Source: Sphingomonadales bacterium
GTDB lineage: Bacteria > Pseudomonadota > Alphaproteobacteria > Sphingomonadales > Sphingomonadaceae
DNA: 64,000 nt
Assembly (NCBI GenBank): GCA_027486895.1
Contig: JAIXOE010000028.1
Coordinates: 25,437-89,436 of the forward strand
Reading direction: 5' to 3'
Shown here: positions 10,057-40,208 of the stretch, piece after piece
How positions within the stretch are numbered: position 1 is the stretch's first letter
Layout of the letters: each line of letters begins with the position of its first letter
Position numbers and translations under genes: made by a program
The notes under the pieces: generated by a model
Seen by the model: the letters and a program-made list of their open reading frames with translations, nothing else
Told to the model about the DNA's origin: nothing
The model's database searches: none

Positions 10057-10374
10057 ATGTTCCGCAACGTTTTCCTTGCGATATTTCTGTTCGCGCTGGC
10101 CCTGCCCGCGCTTGCGGTGCCCGCTGCGCCAGTAGCAGCGGCGCAAGCAATGGCTTCGGATTGCCACGGTATGCCAATGGACAGGCAAGACGACGATGCC
10201 GAAGAGCATGGCAAAGGCGTGCGGCTTCATGGCTGCATCGGCTGTATTGCCCCTGTTTCGCCAAGTTTTGCGGTATTTCAGTCGGCATCATTGCCGTCCA
10301 TCACGCAAAGCGCCCCGCTCAACGAACTCCTGGGCACTATCGCAAGGCCGACAATTCCCCCTCCGCGAAGCTGA
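10057..10374 (+). CDS. Small secreted CxxC / C-terminal polyproline protein (CutF/CruR-like leader candidate)
   Basis: Signal peptide, DC at residues 35-36, CIGC at 60-63, ends RPTIPPPRS; directly upstream of a His/Met-rich outer-membrane protein. Confidence 0.7.
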   Translation: MFRNVFLAIFLFALALPALAVPAAPVAAAQAMASDCHGMPMDRQDDDAEEHGKGVRLHGCIGCIAPVSPSFAVFQSASLPSITQSAPLNELLGTIARPTIPPPRS

Positions 10375-10419
10375 GATTTGAACGACCAATATTGTCATTC
10401 AATCTACAGGAATAATAAC

Positions 10420-11757
10420 ATGAAAATGCCGATTTTATGGGTGAGTGCCAACGCGCTTGCCCTTCACGCCGTCCCTGCCGTTGCGCAGGATCACAGCCAG
10501 ATGGACCATTCGCAGCACCAAGCCGCGCCTGCGTCAAAGTCTGAACCCGTTGACCATTCGAAGATGGACCATTCAAATATGGGTCATGACATGGCGGCGA
10601 CGTCTGCCAACACCGCCGAAAAGCCTGCCGAAGGCTCAGGCACTTCGCGCCTGCCCGGCAACGAAGGCGGCATGCATGGCCTTCACTTGCCTATTGCCAA
10701 GGACTGGATGGTCATGGCGCATGGCTATGCCTGGGGAGTCACCACAAGCCAGTCGGGGCCACGCGGTGACGACAAAACCTATGTCCAATCGATGGCGATG
10801 CTGACCGCCGAGCGCCAGTTCGAAGGCGGGCGGTTCCAGTTCAAATCGATGTTTAGCCTTGAGCCATTGATGTCCAATCGCGGCTATCCCAATCTGTTCG
10901 CGACTGGCGAAACGGCGGGTGGTGCGCCATTGGTCGACCGGCAGCATCCGCATGACTTGTTTATGGAACTCGCCGCGCGGGTAGATTTCGACATCGCACA
11001 AGACGCCAGCCTTTTCCTGTATGGCGGTCCGGTCGGCGAACCGGCTTTGGGGCCAAGCGCCTTCATGCACCGCGGGTCGGCCAAGCTGAACCCTGAGGCA
11101 CCGATCACCCACCATTGGTTCGACAGTAGTCACATCACTTATGGCTTTGCGACCGCAGGCATTTCCACACGGCAGTTCCAGCTGGAAGGCTCGGTGTTCA
11201 CGGGACGAGAGCCCGACGAAGACCGCTGGGATATTGAAAAGCCACGTTTCGATAGCTGGTCAGTCCGCGCGACATTCAACCCTTCCCCGGAATGGGCATT
11301 GCAAGTCAGCCACGGCTTTTTGAAACAACCTGAATTCACAATCCACCCCGACGAGAACGAGCATCGCACAACCGCAAGCGCGCATTATGCCAATGGCAAT
11401 GGCTTGACGGCGACCGCCGCGTTCTCGGCCAAAAACCGCGATCCCGGCCCAACGCTAACCGCTTATCTGGTTGAAGCGAATTGGGACATTGACGACCATC
11501 ACACCGTCTTTGGCCGCTTTGAAAATGTCAAAAATGACGAGCTGTTTCCCGATCATGACGATCCGCTGCATGAGGTTCCGTTTCGCGTCAGCAAGTTTCA
11601 GGCAGGCTACGCCTATCGGCTACCGCTCACTGGCCCGCTGAACCTCGCCTTGGGCGGGACAGTATCGACTTATGCAAAGCCCAACGCCTTGGACGCTGCT
11701 TACGGCAATAATCCGATGGGCTTCACGCTGTTCGCAAAGCTGTCATTGGGGCATTGA
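10420..11757 (+). CDS. Hypothetical outer-membrane beta-barrel protein with His/Met-rich N-terminus (putative metal porin)
   Basis: Signal peptide, DHSQMDHSQH and DHSKMDHSNMGHDM repeats, amphipathic beta-strand pattern, HPHDLFMEL motif. Confidence 0.65.
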   Translation: MKMPILWVSANALALHAVPAVAQDHSQMDHSQHQAAPASKSEPVDHSKMDHSNMGHDMAATSANTAEKPAEGSGTSRLPGNEGGMHGLHLPIAKDWMVMAHGYAWGVTTSQSGPRGDDKTYVQSMAMLTAERQFEGGRFQFKSMFSLEPLMSNRGYPNLFATGETAGGAPLVDRQHPHDLFMELAARVDFDIAQDASLFLYGGPVGEPALGPSAFMHRGSAKLNPEAPITHHWFDSSHITYGFATAGISTRQFQLEGSVFTGREPDEDRWDIEKPRFDSWSVRATFNPSPEWALQVSHGFLKQPEFTIHPDENEHRTTASAHYANGNGLTATAAFSAKNRDPGPTLTAYLVEANWDIDDHHTVFGRFENVKNDELFPDHDDPLHEVPFRVSKFQAGYAYRLPLTGPLNLALGGTVSTYAKPNALDAAYGNNPMGFTLFAKLSLGH

Positions 11758-11766
11758 TCTTGAACT

Positions 11767-11793
11767 CCTCCCCATCCACTTGCGATGGGGAGG
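11767..11793. terminator. Bidirectional hairpin between convergent genes
   Basis: Perfect 10-bp inverted repeat CCTCCCCATC / GATGGGGAGG with a 7-nt loop. Confidence 0.6.
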
Positions 11794-11804
11794 CGTTAAT
11801 CGTT

Positions 11805-12889
11805 TCACTCGGCGTCGGGGTCTTTGACCTTGAACGGATCAGTGACCGCTGGCTGCACAGGCAAAGGCTGGCGTGGCAGTGTCTTGGCGCTGTTTGCAGA
11901 CTGCCAGAGCATTCCGGCCATCACCACCGCCGCTTGCCGCATGTCTTCGGCCTTGAGATGATCGAACGTATCGGCATTGCTGTGGTGCGTGCGGGTTGAA
12001 TAATCGAGCGGGTCCTGAATGAACTGATACGCTGGAACGCCGACGGCCTGCATGAAAACATGGTCCGTGCCGCTGGTGTCGGCGGCAACAACGCGGCCAG
12101 CGTCCATGCCACCAAAAGGGGACAACCATTCCTTGAGCAATGGCACAGCGGCGGCGTTACCTTCGGCGTATATACCGCGGAATTTGCCTGAGCCATTGTC
12201 CATGTTGAAATAGGCTTTCAGGTCGTTGTAGCCCGGCTGCGGCACGATTGGGTAACGATAGGTCCAGTCGTAAAAGGCCTCCAGTCCGTTCGGGTCCTGA
12301 CCAGCTTTTGGTTCGCGGCGTGCGAGATATTTCTCGGTATATGCACGCGACCCGATCAGGCCCTGTTCCTCACCGGACCACAAAGCAAAGCGGATGGTCC
12401 GCTTTGGCGTACCCATGCGCTTCAATATGCGTGCAGCTTCCATCACCACAGCGCTGCCAGCGGCATTGTCGGTCGCACCGTCGCCCGCAACCCAGCTGTC
12501 AAAATGTGCGCCAGCCATGACATAGCCGGCCTTGGGATCGCTGCCGGGGATTTCGGCGATGATATTGTAACCATTGCGGTCGCTGTCATCCGCGCGCTGG
12601 AGGAGACGATTTCCCAGCCACGGCCAAAATCAAACGGATCGCGGCGGACATTTTGCAGACCCCAGCCGTTGAACTTTTCGATGGCCCAAGCCTCTGCACG
12701 GCGCATCGCGGGCGAGTTGGTCAACCGGGGGCCAATGTCGTCGGTCATTTCCTGTGCAAGGCTCATGACTTGCGAACGATTCATGCCTTCATCGACCAAG
12801 CGATTGGTTTCATCCACCTGCGCCGCCGCTGGCATCGATGCCAAAGCAACGAAGGTGAGCGCACTGATAACCCGATATTTAAAACGCAT
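11805..12889 (-). pseudogene. M28 family (carboxypeptidase Q-like) metallopeptidase with internal deletion and frameshift
   Basis: The N-terminal part (signal peptide, DIGPRLTNSP, GRGW) and the catalytic part (NIIAEIPG, GAHFDSW, ATDNAAG, SGEEQGL, GTDH, HHSNADT) are in different frames. They join at GATGAC (12585-12590) with no PA domain between them. Confidence 0.8.
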
Positions 12890-13024
12890 ATCTCGTCCCC
12901 ATGTCTAAACAGAGGTGAATTTAGAGCGTGTTCATTGGGACGATGTAAGAGCAATAAAGTTGTCTGCGTGCGCAAATATCGGTTGCGCGGTGTTGGGTAA
13001 TTTCCCGTTAGCAAGCTTTTCGAT

Positions 13025-13921
13025 TTAGCTGCCCAAGAAGCGCGCCAGAGATGACACATCAATGGCGCAATGGCCGCCATAAAGTGGATGCCACTCAACC
13101 GAAACGCCTCGCTGCGCAGCCTGATCTGCAAGCATTTGCGTGCCCTCGAAATTTCCATATGCGTCGTACAGACCGTTTGACAGATAGAGGGCTGGATAAT
13201 TTTCATCTGCGCGCTTCACCAGTTCAAGAGGTGACATGCGCTTCCACTCGGCATCGTCGGCGACATATTCTTTTGCCCAAAGCCAAACGCCGAAACCGAT
13301 TTTGGGGTCAGCCCCCGTTCGCTTGAGGGTGTCTCTCATGGCTGACACAGAAGCAAAGGGAGATATGTTGTAAACACCGGGACAAAGTGACGCAATTTTA
13401 GCAAAACGTTGCGGGTAGGTGAAACCTGCAATGAGAACATTGAGGCCACCCATAGATTCGCCCAGTAATAACCGCTGCCTTGGTTTGCCGGTTTTCGTGT
13501 CGATTTCGGGCAGCTTGGTCATGAATGCTTCAAGCAACCCGCTATTCTGTTTCTTGCCCTTAGGAACCAGTAACCATGTCGGGCCGTATGATATGACCAC
13601 CACTGTGGGCGGCAGAATTTTTGCCTGCTGCCAGCTCGCTTGCACCATCGACGTCCAATAAGTGTAATCATTCCAGATTTGCGCATCAAGGTTGCGACCA
13701 TGAAGATGGTACACGACGTTTCCATTCGTGCCTGATTTCGAACGATAAATGCAGTATTTCAATCGTCCGGATGAATGACAGCTCTCGCTTGCCGGAATGA
13801 ACGCCACTTTTTGATTGCCCTGTGGAGCGGTGAGCTGTGTCCAAGCATAATAGCCGCCCACGATTAACAGGATCAGGATAAGCCATTTGCGATAGGATTT
13901 GAGGAAGCTTGGCTTATTCAT
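13025..13921 (-). CDS. Alpha/beta hydrolase (putative esterase) with N-terminal membrane anchor
   Basis: GESMGG nucleophile motif and GGHC near the C-terminus. Start moved to ATG 13921, which has a GGGGA SD. Confidence 0.8.
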   Translation of the reverse strand: MNKPSFLKSYRKWLILILLIVGGYYAWTQLTAPQGNQKVAFIPASESCHSSGRLKYCIYRSKSGTNGNVVYHLHGRNLDAQIWNDYTYWTSMVQASWQQAKILPPTVVVISYGPTWLLVPKGKKQNSGLLEAFMTKLPEIDTKTGKPRQRLLLGESMGGLNVLIAGFTYPQRFAKIASLCPGVYNISPFASVSAMRDTLKRTGADPKIGFGVWLWAKEYVADDAEWKRMSPLELVKRADENYPALYLSNGLYDAYGNFEGTQMLADQAAQRGVSVEWHPLYGGHCAIDVSSLARFLGS

Positions 13922-13989
13922 CTTGTCCCCCGTCTGATAAAATGCGCGTTGAGCAATAGCGGCGTTTACATTGCGTAATTGCGCCTCTG

Positions 13990-15822
13990 TCACTTCCGCC
14001 CGAACAGCTTTTCGACATCACCCAAAGCCAGCTTCACCCAAGTTGGCCGGCCATGGTTGCACTGGCCGCTGTGCGGGGTGACCTCCATTTCGCGGAGCAG
14101 CGCGTTCATTTCAGCTACCGACAAGACGCGGCCGGCGCGGACTGATCCGTGGCAGGCCATCGTTGCGGCGACATGGTCGATGCGTTCTTTCAGCGACAAT
14201 GCTTCATCATAAGCGGCAAGGTCATCGGCGAGGTCCTCCAGCAGTCCCTTGGCATCGCCATCACCTAACACGGCGGGTGTGGCGCGCACGAGCATCGCAG
14301 CGGGGCCAAAGCGTTCGAGGTCCAGCCCGAATGCAGACAGTTCATCCGCGCGTGCCTCAAGCCTGTCGCAGGCAGGTTCGTCGAGTTCAACGACTTGCGG
14401 CAACAACAACGCTTGCGAAGGCACAGCACCGCCAGCCGCGGCCATCGCCTTACGCATCCGTTCAAGCACCAGTCGTTCATGCGCGGCATGTTGATCGACG
14501 ATGACAAGGCCATCTTCCGCTTCGGCAACGATATAGGTGTTCGCGACCTGCCCGCGTGCAACGCCAAGTGGATGGCTGGCGCGTTCGGGCACTGGCTCGT
14601 GGGCAACGGCGGCCCTGCCCCATAATGGCGCGAGGTCTTCACCGGGAATAGCGCCCAAGTCCACAAAGCTGCTGCGGTTCTCATACACCGACGGATATGC
14701 AGAACGCTGGCCATATTGCCCCTGATAAGCCGTTGCACCTAACGCAGGAGCGCGCTCAAATATATCGCCTTGCGCTGTCTGGATCGGTTCCTGCTGCCAA
14801 GCTGCGAGCGCGTCCGCCGATGGTCTTTGCACCGCGCGGAAGCCGGACTGGTCAAGCGCGTGGCGCAGCCCCGATACGATCATGCCGCGGATTAACGCTG
14901 GCTCGCGAAAGCGGACCTCCGTCTTTGCCGGATGGACATTTACGTCGACCTGCGTCGGCGGCAAATCAATGAACAGGGCAACCACCGCATGCCGGTCGCG
15001 TGCCAGCATTTCGGCATAGGCGCCGCGTACAGCACCAATCAGCAGACGGTCCTTCACCGGACGCCCATTCACGAACAGGAACTGGTGGTCAGCAACACCG
15101 CGATTATATGTCGGCAGGCTTGCAACCCCGCCAAGGCGAACGCCTTCGCGTTCGAAATCAAGCGCCACGCTGTTTTCGATGAGCTCACCGCTGGTCAGCG
15201 CGGCGACGCGTTCGGGCCGCGCGCTGGTGGGTTGCACCGCCAGCACACGCCGGCCGTCATGCTCTACAGTGAAGCCAATATCTGGCCGCGCCATCGCCAA
15301 GCGTTTCATGGTGTCCAACGCTGCGGCATATTCGGCACGCGCACTACGCAGGAACTTGCGGCGCGCGGGCACATTGCCAAACAGGTGTTCGACGCGAACA
15401 CGCGTGCCCTGCGGCAACGCAGCTGGCCCCTCGCCTGTCACGACGCCATGGTCGACCGTGCGCGTCCAGCCTTCGGCGCCTGCGGGCCTGCTTTCGAGTG
15501 TCATTTTGGATACGCTGGCGATCGATGGCAAAGCTTCGCCGCGAAAGCCCAACGTCGATACCATTTCGATATCTTCATCAGGCAGTTTCGACGTCGCGTG
15601 GCGTTCCAGTGCCAAGGCCATATCAGCAGGGGACATGCCGCAGCCATCGTCGGTGACTTCCACCAAATCGATGCCGCCTGCACTCAGCCGCACCGCGATA
15701 TTGCGTGCGCCCGAATCGATAGCGTTTTCGACCAGTTCTTTTAACGCGCTGGCTGGTCTTTCCACCACTTCACCGGCGGCAATCCGGTTGACCAGGTTTT
15801 CAGGGAGTCTTCTTATTGACAT
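13990..15822 (-). CDS. mutL: DNA mismatch repair endonuclease MutL
   Basis: IAAGEVVERPASALKELVENAIDSGA, GFRGEAL, DQHAAHER and CNHGRPT. Confidence 0.98.
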   Translation of the reverse strand: MSIRRLPENLVNRIAAGEVVERPASALKELVENAIDSGARNIAVRLSAGGIDLVEVTDDGCGMSPADMALALERHATSKLPDEDIEMVSTLGFRGEALPSIASVSKMTLESRPAGAEGWTRTVDHGVVTGEGPAALPQGTRVRVEHLFGNVPARRKFLRSARAEYAAALDTMKRLAMARPDIGFTVEHDGRRVLAVQPTSARPERVAALTSGELIENSVALDFEREGVRLGGVASLPTYNRGVADHQFLFVNGRPVKDRLLIGAVRGAYAEMLARDRHAVVALFIDLPPTQVDVNVHPAKTEVRFREPALIRGMIVSGLRHALDQSGFRAVQRPSADALAAWQQEPIQTAQGDIFERAPALGATAYQGQYGQRSAYPSVYENRSSFVDLGAIPGEDLAPLWGRAAVAHEPVPERASHPLGVARGQVANTYIVAEAEDGLVIVDQHAAHERLVLERMRKAMAAAGGAVPSQALLLPQVVELDEPACDRLEARADELSAFGLDLERFGPAAMLVRATPAVLGDGDAKGLLEDLADDLAAYDEALSLKERIDHVAATMACHGSVRAGRVLSVAEMNALLREMEVTPHSGQCNHGRPTWVKLALGDVEKLFGRK

Positions 15823-15982
15823 ACGCGGGTTCCTAGCCCAAGCGCACAGCCCAAGCGACTCCTTAATCGTTCGCAATCCAGCCAAATATCTGTTTTTAAA
15901 AACAGCAAATTCCGCTAGGACCGCGCGATTACTTGGACGTGCTCCAAAGGACTCTCACCAAACCGGATTGGGTGGAAATTAA

Positions 15983-17023
<1,041 letters not shown>

Positions 17024-17036
17024 TTTAGGTCTCAGC

Positions 17037-17939: not shown

Positions 17940-18490
17940 AAATTCCGGTGACGGCCATTCGTCTGCCCACCCGTCCGGCACGCGAATATGAATCCCGATT
18001 TGATCGGGAGCAGTCGATGCTCAAGATGCTGGCGATCCCGATTGCCTCTGTCGCCTTGGCGTCAATGATTACAGCGTTACCGATATTTACCGATGAGCCG
18101 CTGTTGCCGCCATTTGGGCTGTTGATGTTTTTAAGCTGGCGCCTGATGCGTCCCGGGCTTCTGCCCGTCTGGTCGGGTGTCCCATTTGGTTTAATGGATG
18201 ACCTGTTCAGCGGTCAGCCCTTTGGCAGCGCTGGACTGTTATGGTCACTCGCTATGCTTATCATCGAGATTATCGACTCGCGCGCCATCTGGCGGGATCA
18301 CGTTCAAGACTGGTTGATTGCGGCGATCCTGATCGCGGCTGTGCTGTTGGGTGGATTGTGGATTGCCGGCATGGCGCATGCCGCACCTGAACCAATTGTG
18401 CTGCTTCCGCAGATCATATTGTCCATATTGCTATATCCGCTGGCCGTGCGAATATGCGCGCGTCTCGACAGCTGGCGATTGGCAACATGA
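17936..18490 (+). CDS. mreD: Rod shape-determining protein MreD
   Basis: Hydrophobic protein with GLMDDLFSGQPFG; lies between mreC and mrdA. Confidence 0.88.
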   Translation: MKIPVTAIRLPTRPAREYESRFDREQSMLKMLAIPIASVALASMITALPIFTDEPLLPPFGLLMFLSWRLMRPGLLPVWSGVPFGLMDDLFSGQPFGSAGLLWSLAMLIIEIIDSRAIWRDHVQDWLIAAILIAAVLLGGLWIAGMAHAAPEPIVLLPQIILSILLYPLAVRICARLDSWRLAT

Positions 18491-21503: not shown

Positions 21504-21590
21504 GTGTCTTTGTCATGCTTGACAAAGACCACGAAACCCATCAAAGGCGGCGCTCCAAACGGGCCTGCGCATCTGGCCAGCCCGAAATGG

Positions 21591-21666
<76 letters not shown>

Positions 21667-28220: not shown

Positions 28221-28236
28221 TTCGGATTCCTTTCGA

Positions 28237-31425
<3,189 letters not shown>

Positions 31426-32664
31426 TCAATGGTCATGGCTCGCGCCCGACTTTTCGATGTCGGCGCGAATGAGAAATGCTCCCTTGGCGGCATAAGGCGT
31501 GCTGGGCTTGATGCCCGAAAGCACCTCGGTCCATTCGGGCGACTTGCGCCCGAGTTCCAACATGCGGACCTCGTAATCTTGACCGTAATTGGCAAAGACC
31601 ACCGTGAAGTCGCGGAAGCGTTGCAATGCTTCGGTGCGCACCGCTAGCGGCACCTGTACCGCGTTGATCGTCACACGGCCACGAAGCGCCATACCGGGAC
31701 GCAACCGTCCACCTCGATTGGGGACCGACGCCCGGACAAGCGCAGTGCCTGCTTCTGCATTGCCGTCGGGCAGATATTGGCCCAGCCGTGCCGCCGCGAT
31801 TGCGGTGCCTTCCATCGTTTCGATCTGCACGGCCATGCCGGGCTGGATTGCGCCCAAATCCTTGGGGAAGATGTTGAACACGACCGTCGTCTGCGCAGGG
31901 TCGGTGATGACATAGAGTGCGCGGTCGAAGGTCACATCGCCGGGGTTGCCATTGCGTTCGGCAACGACGCCGCTGACGGTCGAATAGACCGGATAGACTT
32001 GCAAGGACTCGCTCGACTCGATCCGCGCCAGCAATTGACCGCGCTTCACAGTGTCTCCGACCTGTTTTGTGACCGAGACAATCCGCCCCGGAAACTGGCC
32101 GCGAATCTCCGACCTTGCGGTCGTCGCCAACTGGACTGTCCCGTATAGCTCGCGCGTCTCACCGATGGTCGCAGGCCCCACAGTTTCAATCTCGATCCCG
32201 CCCGCCTTGGCAGCGTCAGCGGTAATCCGTGTGCGGCCTTCGGGGCTAGCATAACGCCAGACATGGCGTTTACCGTTCTCGACCGCGACAACTTCGACAT
32301 CGAAGCTGTGCGGTTCCTCGACCACGCCTTGACCAGTCAGATAGTCCTTCTCGGCCTTGAACGGGAACGTGTTGACCTCACCGCCCAGCCGCTTGAGCGT
32401 CACCGTCAGCTGCACGGTCTTTGCATCGACTGGTTTGCCGTCCTTTGTCGGATATATCCGGAACTGCGGCGGCACACCGTCCTCGAAGATGGTCATTTCA
32501 ACCGCGAAGTCGCCGTCCTTCAAAAGTCGGCCGTTGTGCGGCCCCTTCGCTGGTTCACCTTCCTCGCCATGCTCCTCGGCGGGCTCGCGGCTGCTACCGC
32601 AGGCTGCCAAGGGCGTGATGATAAAAAGCGCGACGGCAAGCCGCTTTATGATTGTCTTTTTCAT
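31426..32664 (-). CDS. czcB: RND periplasmic adaptor subunit
   Basis: Lipoprotein signal, GPHNGRLL N-terminal domain, lipoyl-like GDTVKRGQLL, ends SGASHDH. Confidence 0.9.
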   Translation of the reverse strand: MKKTIIKRLAVALFIITPLAACGSSREPAEEHGEEGEPAKGPHNGRLLKDGDFAVEMTIFEDGVPPQFRIYPTKDGKPVDAKTVQLTVTLKRLGGEVNTFPFKAEKDYLTGQGVVEEPHSFDVEVVAVENGKRHVWRYASPEGRTRITADAAKAGGIEIETVGPATIGETRELYGTVQLATTARSEIRGQFPGRIVSVTKQVGDTVKRGQLLARIESSESLQVYPVYSTVSGVVAERNGNPGDVTFDRALYVITDPAQTTVVFNIFPKDLGAIQPGMAVQIETMEGTAIAAARLGQYLPDGNAEAGTALVRASVPNRGGRLRPGMALRGRVTINAVQVPLAVRTEALQRFRDFTVVFANYGQDYEVRMLELGRKSPEWTEVLSGIKPSTPYAAKGAFLIRADIEKSGASHDH

Positions 32665-33899
32665 GGATTAGTCCCCCTGTCGGCAGCGGCGTCAAAGCGT
32701 CCGGTCAGCCGGTCAATTTCTGTTTGAAGGTCACGGTAGCGGATGACCGCATCGAGCCATTCGGCCTGCGCCTGAATGATCGCGTCGGCTGCACCCTGCA
32801 TGTCGCGGAAATTGAAGCCGCCGCGCGCATAGCCTTCGCGCACCTGCCGGAGCGCCTTGGTCGTCTGCGGATAGACTTCAAGGACGATGGCGTCGGCGCG
32901 GGCACGTGCGGCGTCGGCTTCGGCCCCAAGGCTAGCAAGACGGCGGAGCCGGTCAAGCCTTTGCCCTTCGGCGGTAAGCTCGATCCGAAGCTTCTCGGCT
33001 TGCGCCCGTGCGATATTGCCCTGATTGCGGTCGAAGCGTCCCAGCGGGATAGTCACGCCCGCAACCACCGCGACATCATTGGTCCCGCGAAGGAAGCGTG
33101 CGCCGCCGCTGAGCGTGTAATCCTGTCGCGTCCGAGTCTGTTCAACCGCCACTGCCGCCGAAGCCCGCGCAGCTGCTGCCTGAGCAAGCTCAGCGTCGGC
33201 AACCGCAAGCTGCCGTGCCGCTGGTATGCCGGATAACACCTCGCCCTCAGTCTCAACTTCTTCGGCTCTGCCATTCCAGAACGCAGCAAGTGCCGCGCGC
33301 GCGCCTTCGCGCCTCGCTTGCGCCTCGGTCAGATTGAGCCGCGCTTGCGTCACCCGCGCCGACGCGCTCGTCTCGACGAACAGCGGATCTTTATATCCGC
33401 GCACACGGCGCAATGCTTCCCGCTGCATTTCGACTTCGACACCAAGCCGCGTTTCCGCGATCTCGACAACATAGCCTGCGATCACAACGTCGAGAAACGC
33501 ACGCTGGACGGCGCTGACAAGTTCAAGCCGTGCGACCCGCGACGATGCTTGGGCAACGCCGATGTCACGTTCTGCATAGGCAACACGCGCGTCCCGTTTG
33601 CCACCGCGTTCAATCGTCTGGCTATAGGTGCCAGTGATCTCAGCTTGGCCAAAGACATTATAGGGTCCGCTGCCGATAAGGTTTTCGCCTTCGACGGTGA
33701 CGGTTGGGTTGGGGCGGACGCCCGCTTGGACTCGGCCAGCTTGTGCGGCAGCGACCGCCGCCTCATTGGCGCGGATCGACGGCGCGGCCTCAATGGCCTT
33801 GGCAATGGCTTCATCCAGCGTGAACGGCTCCGCAAAGGCAGCCGTAGCCGGAATGGCCAGCGCCGCCGCCAGCAAGGCGGTGCGCAATTTGGGAAACAT
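32661..33899 (-). CDS. czcC: TolC family outer-membrane factor
   Basis: Signal peptide, RPNPT, IERGGKR, IPLGRFDRNQGNI; first gene of the CBA cluster. Confidence 0.9.
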   Translation of the reverse strand: MFPKLRTALLAAALAIPATAAFAEPFTLDEAIAKAIEAAPSIRANEAAVAAAQAGRVQAGVRPNPTVTVEGENLIGSGPYNVFGQAEITGTYSQTIERGGKRDARVAYAERDIGVAQASSRVARLELVSAVQRAFLDVVIAGYVVEIAETRLGVEVEMQREALRRVRGYKDPLFVETSASARVTQARLNLTEAQARREGARAALAAFWNGRAEEVETEGEVLSGIPAARQLAVADAELAQAAAARASAAVAVEQTRTRQDYTLSGGARFLRGTNDVAVVAGVTIPLGRFDRNQGNIARAQAEKLRIELTAEGQRLDRLRRLASLGAEADAARARADAIVLEVYPQTTKALRQVREGYARGGFNFRDMQGAADAIIQAQAEWLDAVIRYRDLQTEIDRLTGRFDAAADRGTNP

Positions 33900-33908
33900 A
33901 TTAAAACT

Positions 33909-33970
33909 CCTGAACCGGATGACACGTTAAAGGGTCGGGCGCGACGCCCGCCCTAACGGCGCGGTTCAGG
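33909..33970 (-). promoter_or_regulatory. SD-sequestering mRNA hairpin upstream of czcC
   Basis: CCTGAACCG / CGGTTCAGG 9-bp perfect stem linking the upstream ORF stop to the czcC SD, with an inner GC-rich hairpin at 33932-33953. Confidence 0.65.
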
Positions 33971-34304
33971 CAGAGGGTGGTTCGGTGGGGGGTGCCTGAC
34001 TGAAAGAGGTCAGCGGGTTTGCACGGTGGAATGACAACAGCGCCTTCGCGGAGGCCGCAACGAGCGCAATGTCAGTCGTCCGTGCGTCCAGCGCGGTCGG
34101 GCAGTGATGATGGTGAAGGCTTTCACCCGCACCTTCATGCGAGGGTGCTTCGTCGCCGTGATAGTCAGTCATCGCGTCATGACCAAAGCTAACGCCGTGT
34201 TCTGTGTGATGGCTTGCCGGTTCCTCATGTGCGACCGCAGGCGCATGGATCGTGCTTGCGACAAGCGCGAAAACAAGAATCAAGCGGGCGAGCAAATACT
34301 TCAC
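33966..34304 (-). CDS. Small secreted His-rich protein ending PPTEPPSA (CzcI-like / leader candidate)
   Basis: GTG start with a GAGGA SD, signal peptide, HHHHC at residues 64-68, C-terminal proline motif. Confidence 0.7.
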   Translation of the reverse strand: MKYLLARLILVFALVASTIHAPAVAHEEPASHHTEHGVSFGHDAMTDYHGDEAPSHEGAGESLHHHHCPTALDARTTDIALVAASAKALLSFHRANPLTSFSQAPPTEPPSA

Positions 34305-34348
34305 AAGTCCTCGCTTAGTCGTGGCTCCCGGTTTGGGCAAATAGTTCG

Positions 34349-35143
34349 TCATTCGGAAGGGGCTTCAATTGCACGGCGCAAGTCGTCGGGAACAGGCATC
34401 GGTTGAAAAGCGCTGACGTTCGAACGCCCGGTATTACCGACCGGGATGCGTCCGGTCAGCGCGCCCAAAGGCGCAAGCGCGAGCCGGACAAGTTGCCCTA
34501 CCGTCTCACGCCAGTCGCGTTGTTCGACCGCAAAGCCGAGCATCGACACATGACTGGCCAGATGCAGCCCCAAATGCGGCTGCGATACGATGTGCGCTCG
34601 TTCGAGGTGCAGCCATGCAGTGGCCTGCTCCCCGGACGCTCGTGCGTTGCGAAATAAGGTCATTTCATCCGCGATGACGCGGCGCATCGGCAGCGTCCGC
34701 GCAAGCCCGCGCCATCGCCGCTGCCTGTGCGAATAGAAAATCTGGGCAAACCCCCAAATGAACGGGGTCAATATTCCGGCAGAAATTTCGACGTTATCGC
34801 TATAATGTGTCCCGCCACCGGCATCCGGCGCAATCGTAATCCAATGGTCCCACTTGGGAATAAGCGTGCTGTAGCCATTGTCGCGCAACCGCTTTGGCCA
34901 TTCGCCGGTTTCAGGCTCGTGGAGCGAGGTCACAATCCACTGCGTCCCGAAAGGGATAAACCCGAACAGACGCAACTTGACCTGATAGCGCCCGCCGGGC
35001 TGAAAGGCGTCGAGCGAGGTTTCGCCAACAGGAATGAAGCACACCATCGGCCATGCAATATGCTGCAACAGGGGCGCGGTCTGAACCTCTGCCCAAACGG
35101 TCGCGGTCGGCAGGTCGATCCTAGTCGAGCGGGAAACTTTCAT
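34349..35143 (-). CDS. SRPBCC-like domain fused to DUF3703
   Basis: Real start is ATG 35143 (ATGA overlap). N-terminal SRPBCC-like part; C-terminal HLERAHIVSQ and GRIPVGNTGRSNVSAFQPMPVP. Confidence 0.7.
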   Translation of the reverse strand: MKVSRSTRIDLPTATVWAEVQTAPLLQHIAWPMVCFIPVGETSLDAFQPGGRYQVKLRLFGFIPFGTQWIVTSLHEPETGEWPKRLRDNGYSTLIPKWDHWITIAPDAGGGTHYSDNVEISAGILTPFIWGFAQIFYSHRQRRWRGLARTLPMRRVIADEMTLFRNARASGEQATAWLHLERAHIVSQPHLGLHLASHVSMLGFAVEQRDWRETVGQLVRLALAPLGALTGRIPVGNTGRSNVSAFQPMPVPDDLRRAIEAPSE

Positions 35144-35766
35144 GCTGCAACCGACCGCAATTCGGCGTTCGCCTGCCGGAACACCTGAACGCCGCCAGTG
35201 AGCGCAAGTCCCGCCATGATCGAGGCAACAATCAGGTCGGGCCATGCGCTGCCGGTCCCAAAAACGCCAAGCGCTGCCAGCATCACAGCGACATTGCCAA
35301 TGGCGTCGTTGCGCGAGCATATCCAGACCGAGCGCATGTTCGCATCGCCGGTGCGGTAACGGTAAAGCATCAAGGCCACACCAACATTGGCTGCTAGCGC
35401 CAACGCGCCGATTGCGCCCATCATGGTCGGGTCCGGTTCGGTACCGTTGATGAAAGCAAGCACCGCGCTGGCAAAAACCCAGGCGGCAAAGCCAAGCATG
35501 AACAGCGATTTGAGCAATGCCGCCCGCGCCCGCCATGCCAGGGCTGCCCCGACGACCGCCAGACTGACTGCATAGTTCGCAGCATCGCCAAGAAAATCGA
35601 GCGCGTCGGCTTGAAGCGCGCGGCTGTCCGCCGCCGCGCCTGCACCCATTTCCACGAAGAACATGGCGGCATTGACGATTAGCGCAATCCAGAGAATGCG
35701 CCGCCAGCGCGGATCGGCCTTGGCCGTTTCGCTCCCGCAGGCGCTTTCGCAACAACTGTCCGCCAT
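35140..35766 (-). CDS. Short CDF-type cation transporter lacking the C-terminal cytoplasmic domain
   Basis: N-terminal CCESAC, ALQADALDFLGD and WICSRNDAIGN; 208 aa. Confidence 0.8.
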   Translation of the reverse strand: MADSCCESACGSETAKADPRWRRILWIALIVNAAMFFVEMGAGAAADSRALQADALDFLGDAANYAVSLAVVGAALAWRARAALLKSLFMLGFAAWVFASAVLAFINGTEPDPTMMGAIGALALAANVGVALMLYRYRTGDANMRSVWICSRNDAIGNVAVMLAALGVFGTGSAWPDLIVASIMAGLALTGGVQVFRQANAELRSVAA

Positions 35767-35802
35767 TCAACATCCTTCTCGACAAATCCCGAGTCGGACA
35801 TC

Positions 35803-35833
35803 TATCTACACCCTGTAGCAACTACAGGGTCAA
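35803..35833 (-). promoter_or_regulatory. MerR-type promoter/operator (CadR/PbrR-like)
   Basis: TTGACC-19bp-TAGATA on the minus strand with a perfect dyad ACCCTGTAG-caa-CTACAGGGT (35810-35830). Confidence 0.88.
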
Positions 35834-35850
35834 GCAGTAAGGATTGGGCA

Positions 35851-36258
35851 GTGAAAATCGGCGAACTCGCGAGTGCAACGGCAACCAAGGTCGAGACGGT
35901 GCGCTACTATGAAAAGATCGGCCTGCTGCCTCCGCCTGCGCGCACATCGGGGAATTACCGTGCCTATGGCAGCGAACATCTTGCCCGCCTGTCATTCATT
36001 CGCCGCGCGCGTGATCTCGGCTTCACGCTGGAAGCTGTGCGGGAATTGCTCACGCTGTCGGACGACAAGGCACAATCGTGCGAGGCAGTCGATGGCATCG
36101 CCCGCGTCCACCTCACCGAAATCGACCGCAAGGTTACTGATTTGACCGCGCTCCGCAACGAACTCGACCGTGTGATCGGCTCCTGCCGCCACGGGACGGT
36201 CGCCGATTGCAAAATCATCGAAACATTGGGGCCAAGAGTAAGAGCCAACATCGTTTAG
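35851..36258 (+). CDS. MerR family regulator, three Cys (CadR/PbrR-like)
   Basis: VETVRYYEKIGLL HTH; Cys in SCEAV and in C-x7-C (CRHGTVADC). Confidence 0.9.
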   Translation: MKIGELASATATKVETVRYYEKIGLLPPPARTSGNYRAYGSEHLARLSFIRRARDLGFTLEAVRELLTLSDDKAQSCEAVDGIARVHLTEIDRKVTDLTALRNELDRVIGSCRHGTVADCKIIETLGPRVRANIV

Positions 36259-36274
36259 CCTCTCGCTGCGCCGT

Positions 36275-36469
36275 TCAAAACATCTCCAACTGATTGCGCA
36301 TCGGGTCCCAAAACCCGATATCCAACGCTCGTTGGCCCCGCTTGGGTTGCATCGGCTGATTGGCAAGCGAGCCAAGCCGCTCCCCCATGCTGACGGGCGC
36401 AACACCCACCATCACAATCTGGTCGGGGTCGGGCGGCGTTATCCGCGGTAACGTCTTGCGCTTGGCCAT
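36275..36469 (-). CDS. Small hypothetical protein (element backbone)
   Basis: MAKRKTLPRITPP..DIGFWDPMRNQLEMF; co-oriented immediately after the DUF3768 gene. Confidence 0.55.
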   Translation of the reverse strand: MAKRKTLPRITPPDPDQIVMVGVAPVSMGERLGSLANQPMQPKRGQRALDIGFWDPMRNQLEMF

Positions 36470-36482
36470 TATCTGCACTCGC

Positions 36483-36884
36483 TCAATATTCGTCGGCAAG
36501 CATGATGATCAGCACCCGCCGCGTGACGGCGGCGTTTGCCGCGTCCTCGCTGGCAAATTGCAATTCACGGTCATAATAATCCAGTTTCCAGAACACCCGT
36601 GCGCGCTCATCCTCCCGAACCCTCGGGCGCTCGGTCGTCCACCGCCCATTGCCAAGCTGATAGACGCACCCAAAATCGCGTTCGCCATGCGGGTCGTTAT
36701 CCTCGGTAAAAGCGTCGAATGTTTCGATAAGTTCACGAACGCGAGACTGGTCAGCATCGGACAGCGACCGAAAACCGACAGTAGCAACGACGGTGCAAGC
36801 AACCCCCATCGCCTGCCGCGCAAGGTCGTTCAAACGCGCAATCCGTGCTGCCTGTTCACGCGCTGAAATAGGAGCCGCGCTCAT
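36483..36884 (-). CDS. DUF3768 domain protein
   Basis: RIARLNDLAR, FDAFTEDNDPHGERDFG, VFWKLDYYD and RVLIIMLADEY. Confidence 0.88.
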   Translation of the reverse strand: MSAAPISAREQAARIARLNDLARQAMGVACTVVATVGFRSLSDADQSRVRELIETFDAFTEDNDPHGERDFGCVYQLGNGRWTTERPRVREDERARVFWKLDYYDRELQFASEDAANAAVTRRVLIIMLADEY

Positions 36885-37093
36885 TGCACTCGCCCTTGTC
36901 TTTGGTTGGCAGTCCGCGCGTGGCGTTCTTCGCAAATCAAGACCAAAGCGCCAAAATCTTCGCGCTCACCCAGCCGCTCGGCAATCCTCTGAACGCACTC
37001 CAGCGGCAAACCATTTTCGTTGGCCAAATCACGCAAATAATCGTCGCGGCACTCCGCGCCGCAAGCACGATAGTTCAAAAGCAAATCGGTCAT
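36881..37093 (-). CDS. Small hypothetical protein (element backbone)
   Basis: 70 aa with DYLRDLANENG..EDFGALV; ATGA overlap with the DUF3768 gene; AAGGAAGG SD-like sequence upstream. Confidence 0.6.
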   Translation of the reverse strand: MTDLLLNYRACGAECRDDYLRDLANENGLPLECVQRIAERLGEREDFGALVLICEERHARTANQRQGRVQ

Positions 37094-37612
37094 CTCAAAC
37101 CTTCCTTGTAGCGAAGCCGCACTGGCTGCGGCATGCGGCTCTGCCTTCCGGCGAGGATGGGAGGGGGAGGGAAAGCTGAATCGCTACCCTTGGCGCGGGC
37201 CAGCGGGCGCAAAGCGACCGCCACACGGGGGTGGCTATTCTGCTTTGGGAACGAGAGGGCAAAGCCCTTGGCGTTCCCACACGATCAATTGAACGGAGGC
37301 GGTTAGCCTCCCCTAGCCGCCACGCGGAAAAACGACTGCACCCTTGCACAAAACGACGCCAGCCGGACGCCATGCGCCCGGGCCTGTGGGCCAGCGGGCA
37401 TTCGGCAAGGAGAGTGGCAAGAGCGCCAGCGGGTCAGCTCAAGAACGCCGCACCCTAGGGAGCGCGAAGCGCGGGGAAGAGTGCGACCCTAAAACCTCCC
37501 GCTCGTCGAACTCCGCTCCCGATCGTCACCCGAATGGGCCGGGACTACAGGCCCGGTCTGCGCCAGCGGATAGAGCGGGTTGCCCGTAAGGGCAGCGCCT
37601 TAGCTTTATAAT

Positions 37613-38002
37613 TCAACTAGGTTCAAAGGCCTCGATAATCGGACATCGCCCATCGCCGCCCTCGGCACATTCATCCGCCAAGCGCCGAAGCGATTTTCGC
37701 GCGGACTGGAGTGCCGCAATTCTCTCGTCAATCTCAGCTATCCGCTTGTTTGCGAGTTCGCGCGCCCTCGCCCGGTCTTCGGTAGCGTCCAAGGCAAGCA
37801 GTTCGCCGATCTCTGCAAGCGTGAATCCTCCGGCCTGTGCCGCTCTGATAAAACGCAGACGGCTGACGTCAGTTTCGTCATACCGCCGAACCCCGCCGTT
37901 ACGTTCTGGCTCAACGAGCAGGCCTCGCCGCTGGTAAAAGCGGACGGTTTCGACGCCCACTCTGCCCGCCGCTGCCAATTTTCCTATCGTCATTGCATTC
38001 AT
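37613..38002 (-). CDS. MerR family regulator, two Cys (CueR-like loop)
   Basis: TIGKLAAAGRVGVETVRFYQRRGLL and C-x7-C (CAEGGDGRC); no Cys at the MerR C82-equivalent position. Confidence 0.88.
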   Translation of the reverse strand: MNAMTIGKLAAAGRVGVETVRFYQRRGLLVEPERNGGVRRYDETDVSRLRFIRAAQAGGFTLAEIGELLALDATEDRARARELANKRIAEIDERIAALQSARKSLRRLADECAEGGDGRCPIIEAFEPS

Positions 38003-38005
38003 CGC

Positions 38006-38037
38006 TTGACTCCGTACTATGCTACGGAACCTATATA
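38006..38037 (+). promoter_or_regulatory. MerR-type promoter/operator of mer-like sequence
   Basis: TTGACT, dyad TCCGTA-N6-TACGGA, extended 19-20 bp spacer to TATATA. Confidence 0.85.
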
Positions 38038-38072
38038 GGCTGGGTGACGTTATCTGCCAACAAGGAACACCT

Positions 38073-38849
38073 ATGACCCAAGCCGCAATTTCAACGCCAG
38101 CGAAAGCCAGTGCCGCCGCCAAAACCGCCACCATCTATCGCATGGTGATGCCGAACCATACCTGCCCTTATGGTCTGAAGGCGCTCGACCTGCTCAAGCG
38201 CAAGGGCTTTACTGTCGAGGACCGCTGGCTGACAGCGCGCGAAGAAACCGACGCGTTCAAAGCCAAGCACAACGTCCAGACGACACCGCAAATCTTCATC
38301 AGCGGCGAGCGTATCGGCGGACATGACGATCTCCGCCGCTACCTCGGCCTGTCAGTCGCCGATCCGAAGGCGACCACCTATCAGCCGGTCATAGCGCTGT
38401 TTTCAATGACCGCCTTGATGGCGCTGGCTGCGAGTTTCGCGGTCTATGGCTCGCCTTTCACCGGGCGCGCCGCCGAATGGTTCATCGCCTTCAGCATGAT
38501 CATCCTCGCGATGCTCAAGCTACAGAATGTCGACAAGTTTGCGACAATGTTCCTGAACTACGACCTGCTCGCGAAACGCTGGGTGCCTTACTCGCGCATC
38601 TATCCATTTGCCGAAGGGCTGGCTGGCGTCCTTATGGCGGCGGGCGCGCTCAACTGGCTGTCGATCCCGGTCGCTTTGTTTATTGGCGGCATTGGTGCGG
38701 CATCGGTATTCAAAGCGGTCTACATCGACAAGCGCGAGCTAAAATGCGCCTGCGTCGGTGGCGATAGCAATGTGCCGCTGGGCTTTGTCTCGCTCACCGA
38801 GAATGTGATGATGGTCGGGATGGCCATTTGGATGATTTTCGCACATTAA
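38073..38849 (+). CDS. Glutaredoxin-MauE/DoxX fusion membrane protein
   Basis: TCPYG and TTPQIFISGERIGG (Grx fold) followed by a TM region with YDLLAKRW and CACVGG. Confidence 0.82.
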   Translation: MTQAAISTPAKASAAAKTATIYRMVMPNHTCPYGLKALDLLKRKGFTVEDRWLTAREETDAFKAKHNVQTTPQIFISGERIGGHDDLRRYLGLSVADPKATTYQPVIALFSMTALMALAASFAVYGSPFTGRAAEWFIAFSMIILAMLKLQNVDKFATMFLNYDLLAKRWVPYSRIYPFAEGLAGVLMAAGALNWLSIPVALFIGGIGAASVFKAVYIDKRELKCACVGGDSNVPLGFVSLTENVMMVGMAIWMIFAH

Positions 38850-38880
38850 GTTCGCGATCTGACAAGCGTTTGGTAGAAGT

Positions 38881-38902
38881 CGCCCGACCAGTTGGCCGGG
38901 CG
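38881..38902. terminator. Hairpin between convergent genes
   Basis: CGCCCG..CGGGCG stem with an inner CCA/TGG pair. Confidence 0.45.
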
Positions 38903-38920
38903 CTTCCTCAATGCAGTTAT

Positions 38921-39073
38921 TTAGTCGTCACAGCAGTCCATTGCCTGCTCGCAACATGCGTCGAGTGCCGCGCAACAGGCGCCCACCGCGTCTGCAACAG
39001 TCGAGGCTTGGGCTGCAAAGGCAGCTGGCGCAACAAAAAGCAGGGCGGCAGCAGCGGCAAAATATTTGGTCAT
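38921..39073 (-). CDS. 50-aa secreted Cys-rich micropeptide with three CC pairs
   Basis: GGAGAG SD, signal peptide ending AFA, mature part AQASTVADAVGACCAALDACCEQAMDCCDD. Confidence 0.65.
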   Translation of the reverse strand: MTKYFAAAAALLFVAPAAFAAQASTVADAVGACCAALDACCEQAMDCCDD

Positions 39074-39163
39074 AAACTCTCTCCGTTGGGAAGCTGGAAT
39101 AGCGTCGCAAAATATCGGCGCTATCAATGATATTCGGGCCAGAAACGCCAACGGTTACAATGT

Positions 39164-39592
39164 TTAATGCTTAGCAAATACGCTCGTTTTACCGGAACCG
39201 AAGGCAATGACGTTATAGCGGTCTGCCGGATATCCCGGCGCTTCCATGCCAGGCGAGCCTAAGGGCATACCAGCAACTGCTAGCCCACGGACACCTTTGG
39301 GCTTTGCTGCCAATACCCGCTTCATATCAGCGACGGGGACATGACCTTCGAAGGCCATGCCGTCGATAAGCGCGGTGTGGCATGATGCGAGGCCAGCAGG
39401 CAATCCGACCCGCCGTTGCAACGCCGGACGGTTCGCATCGTCGATGACTTTGACGCTGCGACCGAACGCCTTGCGGACTTGCGCGGCCCATTTTTCGCAG
39501 CAACCGCAGCCGGGATCACGGTGCATCACTGCCTCGCTTGCCGCCAACGCCGGTGTGGCAACGAGAGCTATTGCCAAAAAGAACTTTCGCAT
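39164..39592 (-). CDS. DUF411 metal-binding periplasmic protein
   Basis: HRDPGCGCCEKW, SCHTA, FEGHVP and GLAVAGMPLGSPGME. Confidence 0.92.
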   Translation of the reverse strand: MRKFFLAIALVATPALAASEAVMHRDPGCGCCEKWAAQVRKAFGRSVKVIDDANRPALQRRVGLPAGLASCHTALIDGMAFEGHVPVADMKRVLAAKPKGVRGLAVAGMPLGSPGMEAPGYPADRYNVIAFGSGKTSVFAKH

Positions 39593-39652
39593 TTTGAATT
39601 TCCTTCAACGAAGAAACGCGGAGAGCCGTCACCAGCCCTCCGCGCCGTCTAC

Positions 39653-39856
39653 TTACTTATGGTCCATGCCACCCATGTCATGGCCTTCATGCTCGTCACC
39701 GGACTTGGCGTCCTTGTCCTTGCAGCAGGCCATCTTGCCATGTTCGTCCTTTTTGCAACAGCAGCACTCCTTTTCAGGGGTAGGTGCTGGATCGGCGGCA
39801 AAGGCAGCGGTGGACATGGTGAGCGCGAGAGCACCCAAAAGATACTTGGTTTTCAT
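39653..39856 (-). CDS. 67-aa secreted Cys/His/Met-rich micropeptide
   Basis: GGAG SD, signal peptide ending AFA, ECCCCKK..MACCK..HEGHDMGGMDHK. Confidence 0.75.
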   Translation of the reverse strand: MKTKYLLGALALTMSTAAFAADPAPTPEKECCCCKKDEHGKMACCKDKDAKSGDEHEGHDMGGMDHK

Positions 39857-39869
39857 GATTTAACTCCGA

Positions 39870-40208
39870 TTATAGATTGAAAAAACAGTGCGCGCCGTGC
39901 CTTCGCGGAGGCGGGATTGGCGGTTTGAGTGCGCCGCCCGACAATTGCGCGCTGGCCGAAAGATTCGGGACCGCGATGACCCGCAAGAGCTGCGTTACGT
40001 CGGCGGTTGCCACGGGCGGAAAGGCACAGGCATGACACGAACGCGCCGCATCGCCACCTTTCTGTCCACCCTTTCCGTCACGATGATCGGGAATGTCCTC
40101 GCAATCCGCCATCATTGCGATTGTTTCTGTTTGAACAGGCGCGGCGCAAATCGGTGCTGCCCGCAGCACGAGCGCAATTGCGAGAAAACAGGCAGCGAGT
40201 ATTTTCAT
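39870..40208 (-). CDS. Small secreted CxxC / polyproline protein (CutF/CruR-like leader candidate)
   Basis: ATG 40208 (ATGA overlap with the PepSY gene), signal peptide, DC at 35-36, CHAC at 58-61, PPIPPPR at 96-102. Confidence 0.65.
   Translation of the reverse strand: MKILAACFLAIALVLRAAPICAAPVQTETIAMMADCEDIPDHRDGKGGQKGGDAARSCHACAFPPVATADVTQLLRVIAVPNLSASAQLSGGALKPPIPPPRRHGAHCFFNL

Follow-up and report, generated by a model that had tools for sequence, protein, structure and literature searches.

The 64,000-nucleotide (nt) stretch of Sphingomonadales bacterium DNA analysed here (assembly GCA_027486895.1, contig JAIXOE010000028.1, positions 25,437 to 89,436 of the forward strand; hereafter the window) contains three small open reading frames (ORFs), ORF1, ORF2 and ORF3, each with an N-terminal export signal, a Cys/His motif and a proline motif near its C-terminus (Table 1). 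An initial annotation had read them as a family of leader peptides that sense metal while still on the ribosome; the observation behind that proposal was confirmed, and its interpretation is partly supported. ORF1 and ORF3 indeed share a signal peptide, D35-C36, a CxxC (C60IGC63 and C58HAC61, respectively) and a PPPR motif that begins 38 residues after the CxxC (C63 to P101, counted by hand, and C61 to P99). ORF1 ends in IPPPRS, while IPPPR in ORF3 is followed by ten further residues that hold C108, so that the CxxC supplies the ‘last Cys’ described earlier only if this tail is set aside. In ORF2, the Cys of an HHHHC motif lies 37 residues ahead of the first and 41 ahead of the second di-proline of a C-terminal QAPPTEPP-SA, as had been reported; its sensor motif reads H81-H-H-C84, that is, HxxC, without a CXXC. 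All three begin with a K/R n-region, a hydrophobic core and an AxA-like site, a Sec-type N-terminus as judged from these sequence features and from AlphaFold, which placed residues 3–18 of ORF1 in a confident helix. A scan of the window for every ORF of 50–170 amino acids with a hydrophobic N-terminus and a PP in its last 20 residues returned ORF1, ORF2 and ORF3 together with three out-of-frame ORFs overlapping real genes.

Table 1 Positions of the three peptide genes, their motifs and their neighbours in the window.
Feature	Position	Strand	Details
ORF1 (family F1), exported peptide	10057..10374	+	105 amino acids; signal peptide about residues 1–31
ORF1 sites	D35-C36-H37 10159-10167; C60xxC63 10234-10245; P101-P103-R104 10357-10368; stop 10372-10374	+	
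Hairpin at ORF1 end	10371..10409	+	last codon and UGA stop to CAG of CAGGA site
Exported 445-amino-acid protein	10420..11757	+	His/Met-rich N-terminus; gene after ORF1
czcCBA RND efflux pump	28237..33899	-	czcC 32661-33899, czcB 31426-32664, czcA 28237-31410
Three-tier stem-loop between ORF2 and czcC	33909..33970	-	outer 8-bp helix around GC-rich hairpin
ORF2 (family F2)	33966..34352	-	128 amino acids from ATG 34352; 112 from GTG 34304
ORF2 sites	H80-H83-C84 34115-34101; A120-PPTEPPSA-128 33995-33969; stop 33968-33966	-	
DUF3703 gene	34349..34702	-	stop overlaps ORF2 ATG as ATGA
CDF transporter	35140-35766	-	ahead of DUF3703
MerR regulator	35851-36258	+	divergent
DUF411 protein	39164..39592	-	Pfam DUF411, E = 1.4e-23; last gene of copper row
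Exported Cys/His/Met-rich micropeptide	39653..39856	-	67 amino acids; 13 nt after ORF3
ORF3 (family F3)	39870..40208	-	112 amino acids; paralogue of ORF1
ORF3 sites	D35-C36 40106-40101; C58xxC61 40037-40026; P99-P101-R102 39914-39903	-	then non-conserved 10-residue tail
PepSY_TM-like membrane protein	40205..40873	-	stop overlaps ORF3 ATG as ATGA

Database searches returned 89 relatives of ORF1, 61 of ORF2 and 30 of ORF3 (families F1, F2 and F3), and the named ones were all from Sphingomonadales. The three ORFs are real genes, since dozens of homologues of each keep the motifs and the spacing; chance ORFs were ruled out, each having a conserved family and fixed synteny. ORF1 and ORF3 aligned at 31% identity by BLASTP (E = 2e-6) and over their full length by hhalign (probability 96.6%), which makes them paralogues, both carrying a PPPR end like that of CutF. 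For F2, an index-free, exhaustive HMMER search gave 203 representatives at E <= 1e-3, clustered at 50% identity, and motifs and spacers were counted on the best 150 of these. All but one of the 150 (149) end in xPPx(E/Q/D)PP plus exactly two residues, HHHC occupies positions -40 to -37 in 110, and several family representatives carry a literal SRAPPxxPPxA. The most conserved mature residues in the families are the metal motif (column identity 0.91) and the last ~15 residues, which is the part expected in the upper exit tunnel and a conservation pattern like that of arrest peptides; upstream DCH or His-rich motifs are conserved as well. The peptides otherwise diverge far faster than their neighbours, F2 members sharing 38–41% identity where CzcC shares 89%. 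Pfam DUF2946 (PF11162) matched ORF2 at 20.1 bits (E = 1.1e-3), short of the gathering score of 23.7 bits, and at E <= 0.1 it matched 36 of 62 F2 members (best E = 4.9e-5) and 16 of 86 F1 members (best E = 1.2e-3); one F2-family cluster member bears the UniRef name ‘DUF2946 domain-containing protein’. The signal peptide of the ORF1 family (10057-10122) is itself atypical, most of its first 22 positions being more than 70% conserved and several invariant.

The distance between sensor motif and prolines is fixed in all three families, as a test proposed in the initial annotation had anticipated. Cys-to-Pro spacing is 38 in 84 of 89 F1 homologues and in 26 of 30 F3 homologues, with 37 intervening residues between CxxC and PPP in 83/84 and 23/25, respectively; the segment preceding the F1 spacer measures 19–22 residues and the F1 tail 2, 4 or 8. 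In F2 the last Cys stands 37 residues from the Pro in 52/61 homologues, 35 residues separate the HHHC Cys from APP in all 61, and the Cys is exactly 37 residues ahead of the first Pro in 119 of 127 among the best 150 representatives. Profile alignment of the same 150 showed the 35-position spacer to be indel-free in 131, with net length kept in 10 more, compared with just 19 for the 38-position N-terminal mature region, even though the two segments are equally variable in sequence (column identity 0.26 versus 0.24). As judged from these alignments, the spacer behaves like a length ruler, conserved in length and not in sequence. AlphaFold, given 86 sequences, found no fold in the mature ORF1 peptide (predicted local distance difference test (pLDDT) 46–57), and a compact domain is therefore no explanation for the fixed length. 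Within F3 the tail after the prolines varies from 3 to 17 residues without keeping frame, and the distance from PPP to the next ATG is constant at 56–59 nt; because the stop floats and this distance does not, PPPR looks like the functional end of the peptide.

Directly after PPP, Arg (10366-10368 in ORF1, 39905-39903 in ORF3) is encoded by CGA or AGA in 12 of 13 unique ORF1-family loci. Both codons are rare, accounting for 5.3% (CGA) and 0.6% (AGA) of the Arg codons in window genes, and could lengthen a pause there. Their use is less consistent within the family of ORF3.

Gene neighbourhoods, the second property proposed for checking, gave fixed partners for each family in the fetched loci. 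ORF2 and ORF3 lie directly upstream of metal genes as claimed (czcCBA, and the micropeptide and DUF411 genes, respectively), both on the minus strand, which had gone unremarked; the ‘barrel’ said to follow ORF1 was not verified. F2 homologues always lie within a merR<->CDF-DUF3703-ORF2-OEP-CzcB-CzcA arrangement, with CzcC directly after the peptide in 23 of 23 loci with downstream sequence. The czcCBA products matched Pfam OEP, HlyD_D23 and ACR_tran (ACR_tran at 1087 bits), and CzcA residues 402–416 match DFG-x3-DGA-x3-VEN. Nies, in 2003, reportedly described this motif, in transmembrane helix 4, as that of HME-RND divalent-cation pumps. We take the window CzcA to carry this divalent-cation signature and not that of the Cus type; on this point the initial annotation is supported. 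F3 homologues always lie within copA-copB-PepSY_TM-ORF3-67-residue Cys-rich peptide-DUF411. The micropeptide (EKECCCCKKDEHGKMACCKD...GHDMGGMDHK) is 97–98% identical between loci in which the ORF3 homologue is just ~65–78% identical.

F1 homologues are always followed by a domainless protein of 445–459 residues (20 loci) and often preceded by ychF. The 445-residue protein after ORF1 shows 77% mean column identity across 10 loci, with many invariant His, and searches of Pfam, NCBIfam and the PDB gave no match to it. A CopB-like barrel was considered and rejected, as profile similarity was limited to the signal peptide and the His/Met region and the PDB gave no hit; a single-sequence AlphaFold model was unusable (pLDDT 31). 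On present sequence comparisons the protein is an apparently uncharacterised family tied to a putative metal-sensor leader.

The gaps from peptide gene to next gene are 45 nt for ORF1, 66 nt for ORF2 and 13 nt for ORF3, and the three units lie within 30 kb. The ATGA overlaps with the DUF3703 and PepSY_TM stops make ORF2 and ORF3 internal, coupled genes and not operon leaders; the 4-nt overlap of PepSY_TM and ORF3 recurs in four other loci (L009, L010, L049 and L050). ORF1 stands first in the window, and its homologues follow 16–25 nt behind other genes in several other loci. Genes for MerR regulators adjoin the F2 and F3 loci, as well as some of F1.

Between ORF2 and czcC the transcript folds into a three-tier stem-loop whose outer helix pairs CCUGAACC (33970-33963) with GGUUCAGG (33916-33909). 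The first of these strands takes in the last bases of the final Ala codon, then UGA and ACC, and so contains the stop codon of ORF2 itself; the second overlaps the AGGAG ribosome-binding site of czcC (33911-33907). The junction folds more stably than expected (window z = -2.8 to -3.5). The same arrangement is formed by each of the 16 unique loci; the outer helix is intact in 13 of these, with one mismatch or bulge in the remaining three. The inner stems have subgroup-specific sequences, with six pairs showing compensatory double changes; 91% of their cells are paired, compared with 20–50% when partners are slid, and their covariation score was reached by none of 500 shuffles. At the end of F2 genes the terminal Ala is always GCC and the stop always UGA, while synonymous changes occur in each of the eight codons that precede the final two. 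These features suggest that the stop-codon helix would sequester the czcC ribosome-binding site. A short U-rich stretch follows the GC-rich hairpin in most loci; the hairpin was rejected as an intrinsic terminator by a terminator scan. Metatranscriptome contigs span ORF2 and the ORF2–czcC junction, which speaks for presence in RNA libraries and nothing more.

The end of ORF1 folds into a hairpin with a z of -1.9 or -1.2, whose minimum-energy fold pairs the stop codon in 13/13 unique F1 loci; nine close loci supply two compensatory pairs, and its 3′ end is usually the CAG of the CAGGA site. There is moderate support for this hairpin, a weaker version of the ORF2 helix. At the ORF3 junction, pairing of the PPP codons (CCUCCG), as an anti-Shine–Dalgarno (anti-SD) sequence, with the GGAG of the micropeptide gene was predicted in one of seven loci and dropped. 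Rfam contained no known RNA family matching the junctions.

All three ORFs fall under the rules by which Ozturk et al. 2023 recognize CutF-like proteins (fewer than 150 amino acids, export signal, Cys/His motif, a PP among the final 15 residues and, less than 100 nt further on, another gene on the same strand), their prolines lying at residues 101–103 of 105 (ORF1), 121–126 of 128 (ORF2) and 99–101 of 112 (ORF3). Metal-dependent stalling has been shown experimentally for CutF and CruR (PMC9973294, PMC9426467, bioRxiv 10.1101/2025.02.05.636593). CutF of Rhodobacter capsulatus (cutFOG; Ozturk et al. 2021, 2023, 2025), like the peptides described here, is a small Sec-exported protein with a central Cys motif and a PPPR followed by 1–2 residues: it has C69xxxC73, ends P114PPRL118 (GPPPRL) and requires its signal peptide (PMC8456105, PMC9973294, bioRxiv 10.1101/2025.02.05.636593). 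Its Cys-to-Pro distance of 41 is similar to the 38 found here, the likeness being one of features. Arrest at the end of CutF frees the downstream ribosome-binding site, as shown experimentally (PMC9973294); an intergenic stem-loop hiding the next ribosome-binding site is clear for ORF2, weaker for ORF1 and absent for ORF3. In both settings the target is a metal-detoxification gene, but CutF controls a multicopper oxidase, whereas an RND pump, an exported protein of unknown kind or a micropeptide follows here. CutF differs further in having CxxxC in place of CxxC or HHHC; in the window, moreover, the anti-SD strand holds the stop of the peptide gene itself, and other genes precede ORF2 and ORF3 in their operons.

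CruR (Bp2923) of Bordetella pertussis, described by Roy 2022 (PMC9426467), defines DUF2946 by CXXC and RAPP. The likeness to it lies in an exported small protein with a CXXC (here in ORF1 and ORF3), an xAPP-type motif 2–3 residues before the stop, a predicted lack of structure, and a spacing that is conserved in the family and functionally important: in the CruR family, 45 intervening residues are kept within 1–2 in more than 2000 proteins, and insertion of five residues strongly reduces copper regulation (PMC9426467). The F2 family adds sub-threshold DUF2946 matches and some members with a literal RAPP, although none of the three window ORFs has RAPP itself, all having a C-terminal xPP motif instead. 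The last Cys of CruR, however, stands 48 residues before the first Pro, compared with 37–38 here, and the 34–35 residues counted from the last Cys to the residue before xPP fall outside the 45 (+/-2) that characterize DUF2946. CruR also differs in heading its operon, in its intergenic region of 162 nt and in its use of Rho-dependent termination: copper relieves the stall, Rho then terminates transcription (PMC9426467) and an uptake transporter is repressed, independently of EF-P and of the signal peptide.

Ozturk 2023 (PMC9973294) sorted 5,334 CutF-like proteins, whose motifs are of Cys, of His or mixed, into 29 clusters, found outer-membrane RND factors to be the commonest downstream neighbour and His-only clusters to precede HupE/UreJ genes (Ni/Co), and placed CzcI in the CutF-like family (sequence similarity network (SSN) cluster 20) despite its lack of a proline motif. 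CzcI and CzcI2 of Cupriavidus metallidurans, compared by description, resemble ORF2 as small exported His/Cys proteins directly before czcCBA, but lack the C-terminal proline motif (PMC9973294), whereas F2 has an almost invariant xAPPxEPPxA end. Arrest peptides of the RAPP and SecM types (ApdA/ApdP, SecM, VemP and MifM) share a C-terminal arrest segment, an N-terminal export signal and an RNA helix that controls a downstream ribosome-binding site, yet what they monitor is the secretion machinery and not metal, and they lack a Cys/His sensor placed at a set distance.

We consider it probable, at roughly 60%, that the three ORFs encode exported peptides of the CutF/CruR (DUF2946-like) class whose nascent chain is a cis regulator of the gene behind it. 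The motifs, length ruler, synteny, RNA helix and absence of a predicted fold are features of the loci; from them we infer stalling, its dependence on metal, the direction of that dependence and a strictly cis action. Under such a mechanism the ribosome would slow at the proline motif (PPPR in ORF1 and ORF3, xAPP-x-E-PP in ORF2), with a dwell time set by metal occupancy of the Cys/His motif. Since ~38 residues from the peptidyl-transferase centre is about the length of the exit tunnel, HHHC or CxxC would at that moment be at the exit port or entering SecY, and DCH or His-rich segments ~65 residues back could already be outside. This geometry fits the proposal of Roy et al. that arrest is controlled by force arising from metal-dependent folding near the exit: metal binding would alter folding and hence how strongly the chain is pulled.

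ORF2 with czcCBA is the best-supported and most informative case. With Pro125 in its P-site, two to three codons short of the stop, a ribosome would sit over the anti-SD strand and thereby free the czcC ribosome-binding site, so that translation of czcCBA would follow occupancy of the leader end. The sign of the metal response is not readable from sequence; as the target is an efflux pump, metal of the Zn/Co/Cd type would be expected to prolong the pause, as in CutF. We propose, tentatively and with rather less assurance than for the class as a whole, that F2 is a Zn/Co/Cd-responsive arrest peptide and would be the first non-copper nascent-chain sensor, switching on an RND pump through a stop-codon anti-SD strand with a 37-residue ruler that holds the sensor at the exit or SecY. 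ORF1 would probably act by the same route through its weaker hairpin. ORF3, having no such helix, would more likely affect the micropeptide and DUF411 genes by polarity or by tight translational coupling.

Several observations weigh against this reading. ORF2 showed no detectable homology to ORF1 or ORF3 (hhalign probabilities of 8% and 2%, respectively), which weakens the claim of one regulatory design with exchangeable sensors; because the sub-threshold DUF2946 matches are all that links them, the shared design may be convergent or very distant. Within Pfam DUF2946, ORF1 and ORF3 had no match and none of the three reached the gathering threshold. ORF2 and ORF3 sit inside operons, unlike cruR genes, which stand first as is typical of DUF2946, and the term ‘leader’ used in the initial annotation does not suit them in that sense. 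The outer helix of ORF2 has no covariation of its own because it is invariant, and part of its 3′ strand is a ribosome-binding site, for which conservation would be expected in any case; the hairpin of ORF1 is weak and reaches just the first G of the ribosome-binding site; and the ORF3–micropeptide junction showed no conserved RNA structure. Almost all homologues come from Sphingomonadales, so that conservation partly reflects shared ancestry, and the adjacent MerR regulators could alone explain metal regulation, at the level of transcription. PPxEPP offers two di-prolines only, which are weaker stallers than PPP. Finally, a spacing of 37–38 residues leaves the sensor not yet periplasmic, a misfit with the periplasmic-sensing model of CutF. 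The same spacing bears on the earlier suggestion that secretion and metal binding are coupled to translation: the sensor would lie at the exit port or SecY and not in the periplasm, and such coupling is accordingly not a given, CruR working without its signal peptide and CutF needing it.

The best-surviving alternative, which we nonetheless consider unlikely, is that the peptides act in trans as periplasmic metal-binding proteins, chaperones or regulators similar to CzcI or CopL, with the proline end serving as a contact or stability element and the RNA helix as ordinary coupling. Export of all three Cys/His-rich products and conservation of the upstream His-rich or DCH motifs would suit this, as would the weak match of ORF2 to the NCBIfam ‘CopL family metal-binding regulatory protein’ and the precedent of C. 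metallidurans CzcI, which takes the same position before czcCBA and has been discussed as a periplasmic metal-sensing regulator without a proline motif (PMC9973294). Such proteins would, however, hardly be expected to have a mature part predicted to be disordered, a spacer conserved in length alone, or, in ORF3, a tail past PPPR conserved in neither frame nor length; it is also hard to explain in this way why the last PP should be followed by exactly two residues and then a stop inside the anti-SD strand, and CutF and CruR are undetectable in cells, CutF showing no complementation in trans (PMC9973294, PMC9426467).

Somewhat less likely again is control of the CruR type, in which the stall would shield the transcript from Rho or a weak terminator and metal would relieve it, turning the downstream genes off. 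The best candidates for it would be ORF3 and ORF1, the latter possibly acting on an uptake or outer-membrane protein. CruR is the characterised DUF2946 member and is regulated independently of its signal peptide (PMC9426467), the 37–38-residue ruler puts the sensor at the exit port, where release by folding force would fit, and in most loci the GC-rich hairpin after ORF2 runs into its short U-rich stretch. That hairpin nevertheless failed the terminator scan, the intergenic regions are 13–66 nt long compared with 162 nt in cruR, shut-off by metal is the wrong sign for an efflux pump, and a helix sequestering the Shine–Dalgarno sequence points to control of translation initiation. Least probable of all is constitutive coupling without sensing, in which translation through the stop opens the helix, the prolines merely slow the ribosome, MerR-type regulators exert all metal control and the Cys/His motifs serve another purpose or none: MerR genes do lie beside F2, F3 and some F1 loci, and the ATGA overlaps show ORF2 and ORF3 to be themselves coupled to upstream genes, but simple coupling needs neither HHHC/CxxC as the most conserved mature residues (column identity 0.91) nor a fixed distance from motif to prolines.

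The design principle of nascent-chain control with conserved spacing, His/Cys variants and RND neighbours is already published (Roy 2022; Ozturk 2023, 2025), and the novelty claimed in the initial annotation was overstated: conserved spacing and spacing mutants are in Roy 2022, and His or mixed motifs, RND neighbours and CzcI in Ozturk 2023. New here, as far as sequence can tell, would be a large His3-Cys subfamily before a divalent-cation pump, a ruler that is shorter, at 37–38 residues, and very exact, an anti-SD strand containing the stop codon of the leader itself, and the occurrence of three putative units within 30 kb. Metal-sensing arrest peptides are a recent discovery with two tested examples, both copper-specific. 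F2 with czcCBA offers a clean system in which to ask whether zinc, cobalt or cadmium can be sensed by the same principle, and in what way stalling responds to a ligand bound ~38 residues away from the peptidyl-transferase centre. Such peptides are routinely annotated as ‘hypothetical protein’, and the motifs would allow them to be annotated.

Sphingomonad plasmids carry merR-CDF-DUF3703 and PepSY-DUF411 blocks similar to those in the window. As annotated relatives of the window units they were set aside, because their DNA matches stop where ORF2 begins or leave ORF3 uncovered. In the one plasmid inspected, that of Sphingomonas sp. NIC1 (L054, 3196-3368), DUF305-DUF411 follow PepSY in place of ORF3 and the micropeptide, with a 170-nt unannotated gap behind PepSY; other plasmid matches list the same three annotations. 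L030 (and L031) are mosaic relative to the window, CDF being 99% and DUF3703 87% identical but the leader just 35% and CzcC 30%, a pattern suggestive of a recombination breakpoint in the leader or close to it.

An inverted repeat, ATGCTGAAACAAGTTCAGCAT (10003-10023), with 8-nt arms and a 5-nt centre, lies 34 nt ahead of the ORF1 start; as a conserved operator it was rejected, because other loci lack it ahead of their ORF1 homologues. The gap separating the micropeptide and DUF411 genes holds a 14-bp GC-rich hairpin with a T-rich tail (39615-39646, minus strand), which looks terminator- or attenuator-like and would lie inside an apparent operon. An ECF sigma factor and a Metal_resist/LTXXQ protein are encoded directly upstream of copA (43668-44671, minus strand). 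A gene for a glutaredoxin–MauE fusion (38019-38849, plus strand) lies nearby, and in other genomes the same fusion is found next to homologues of ORF1 and ORF3.

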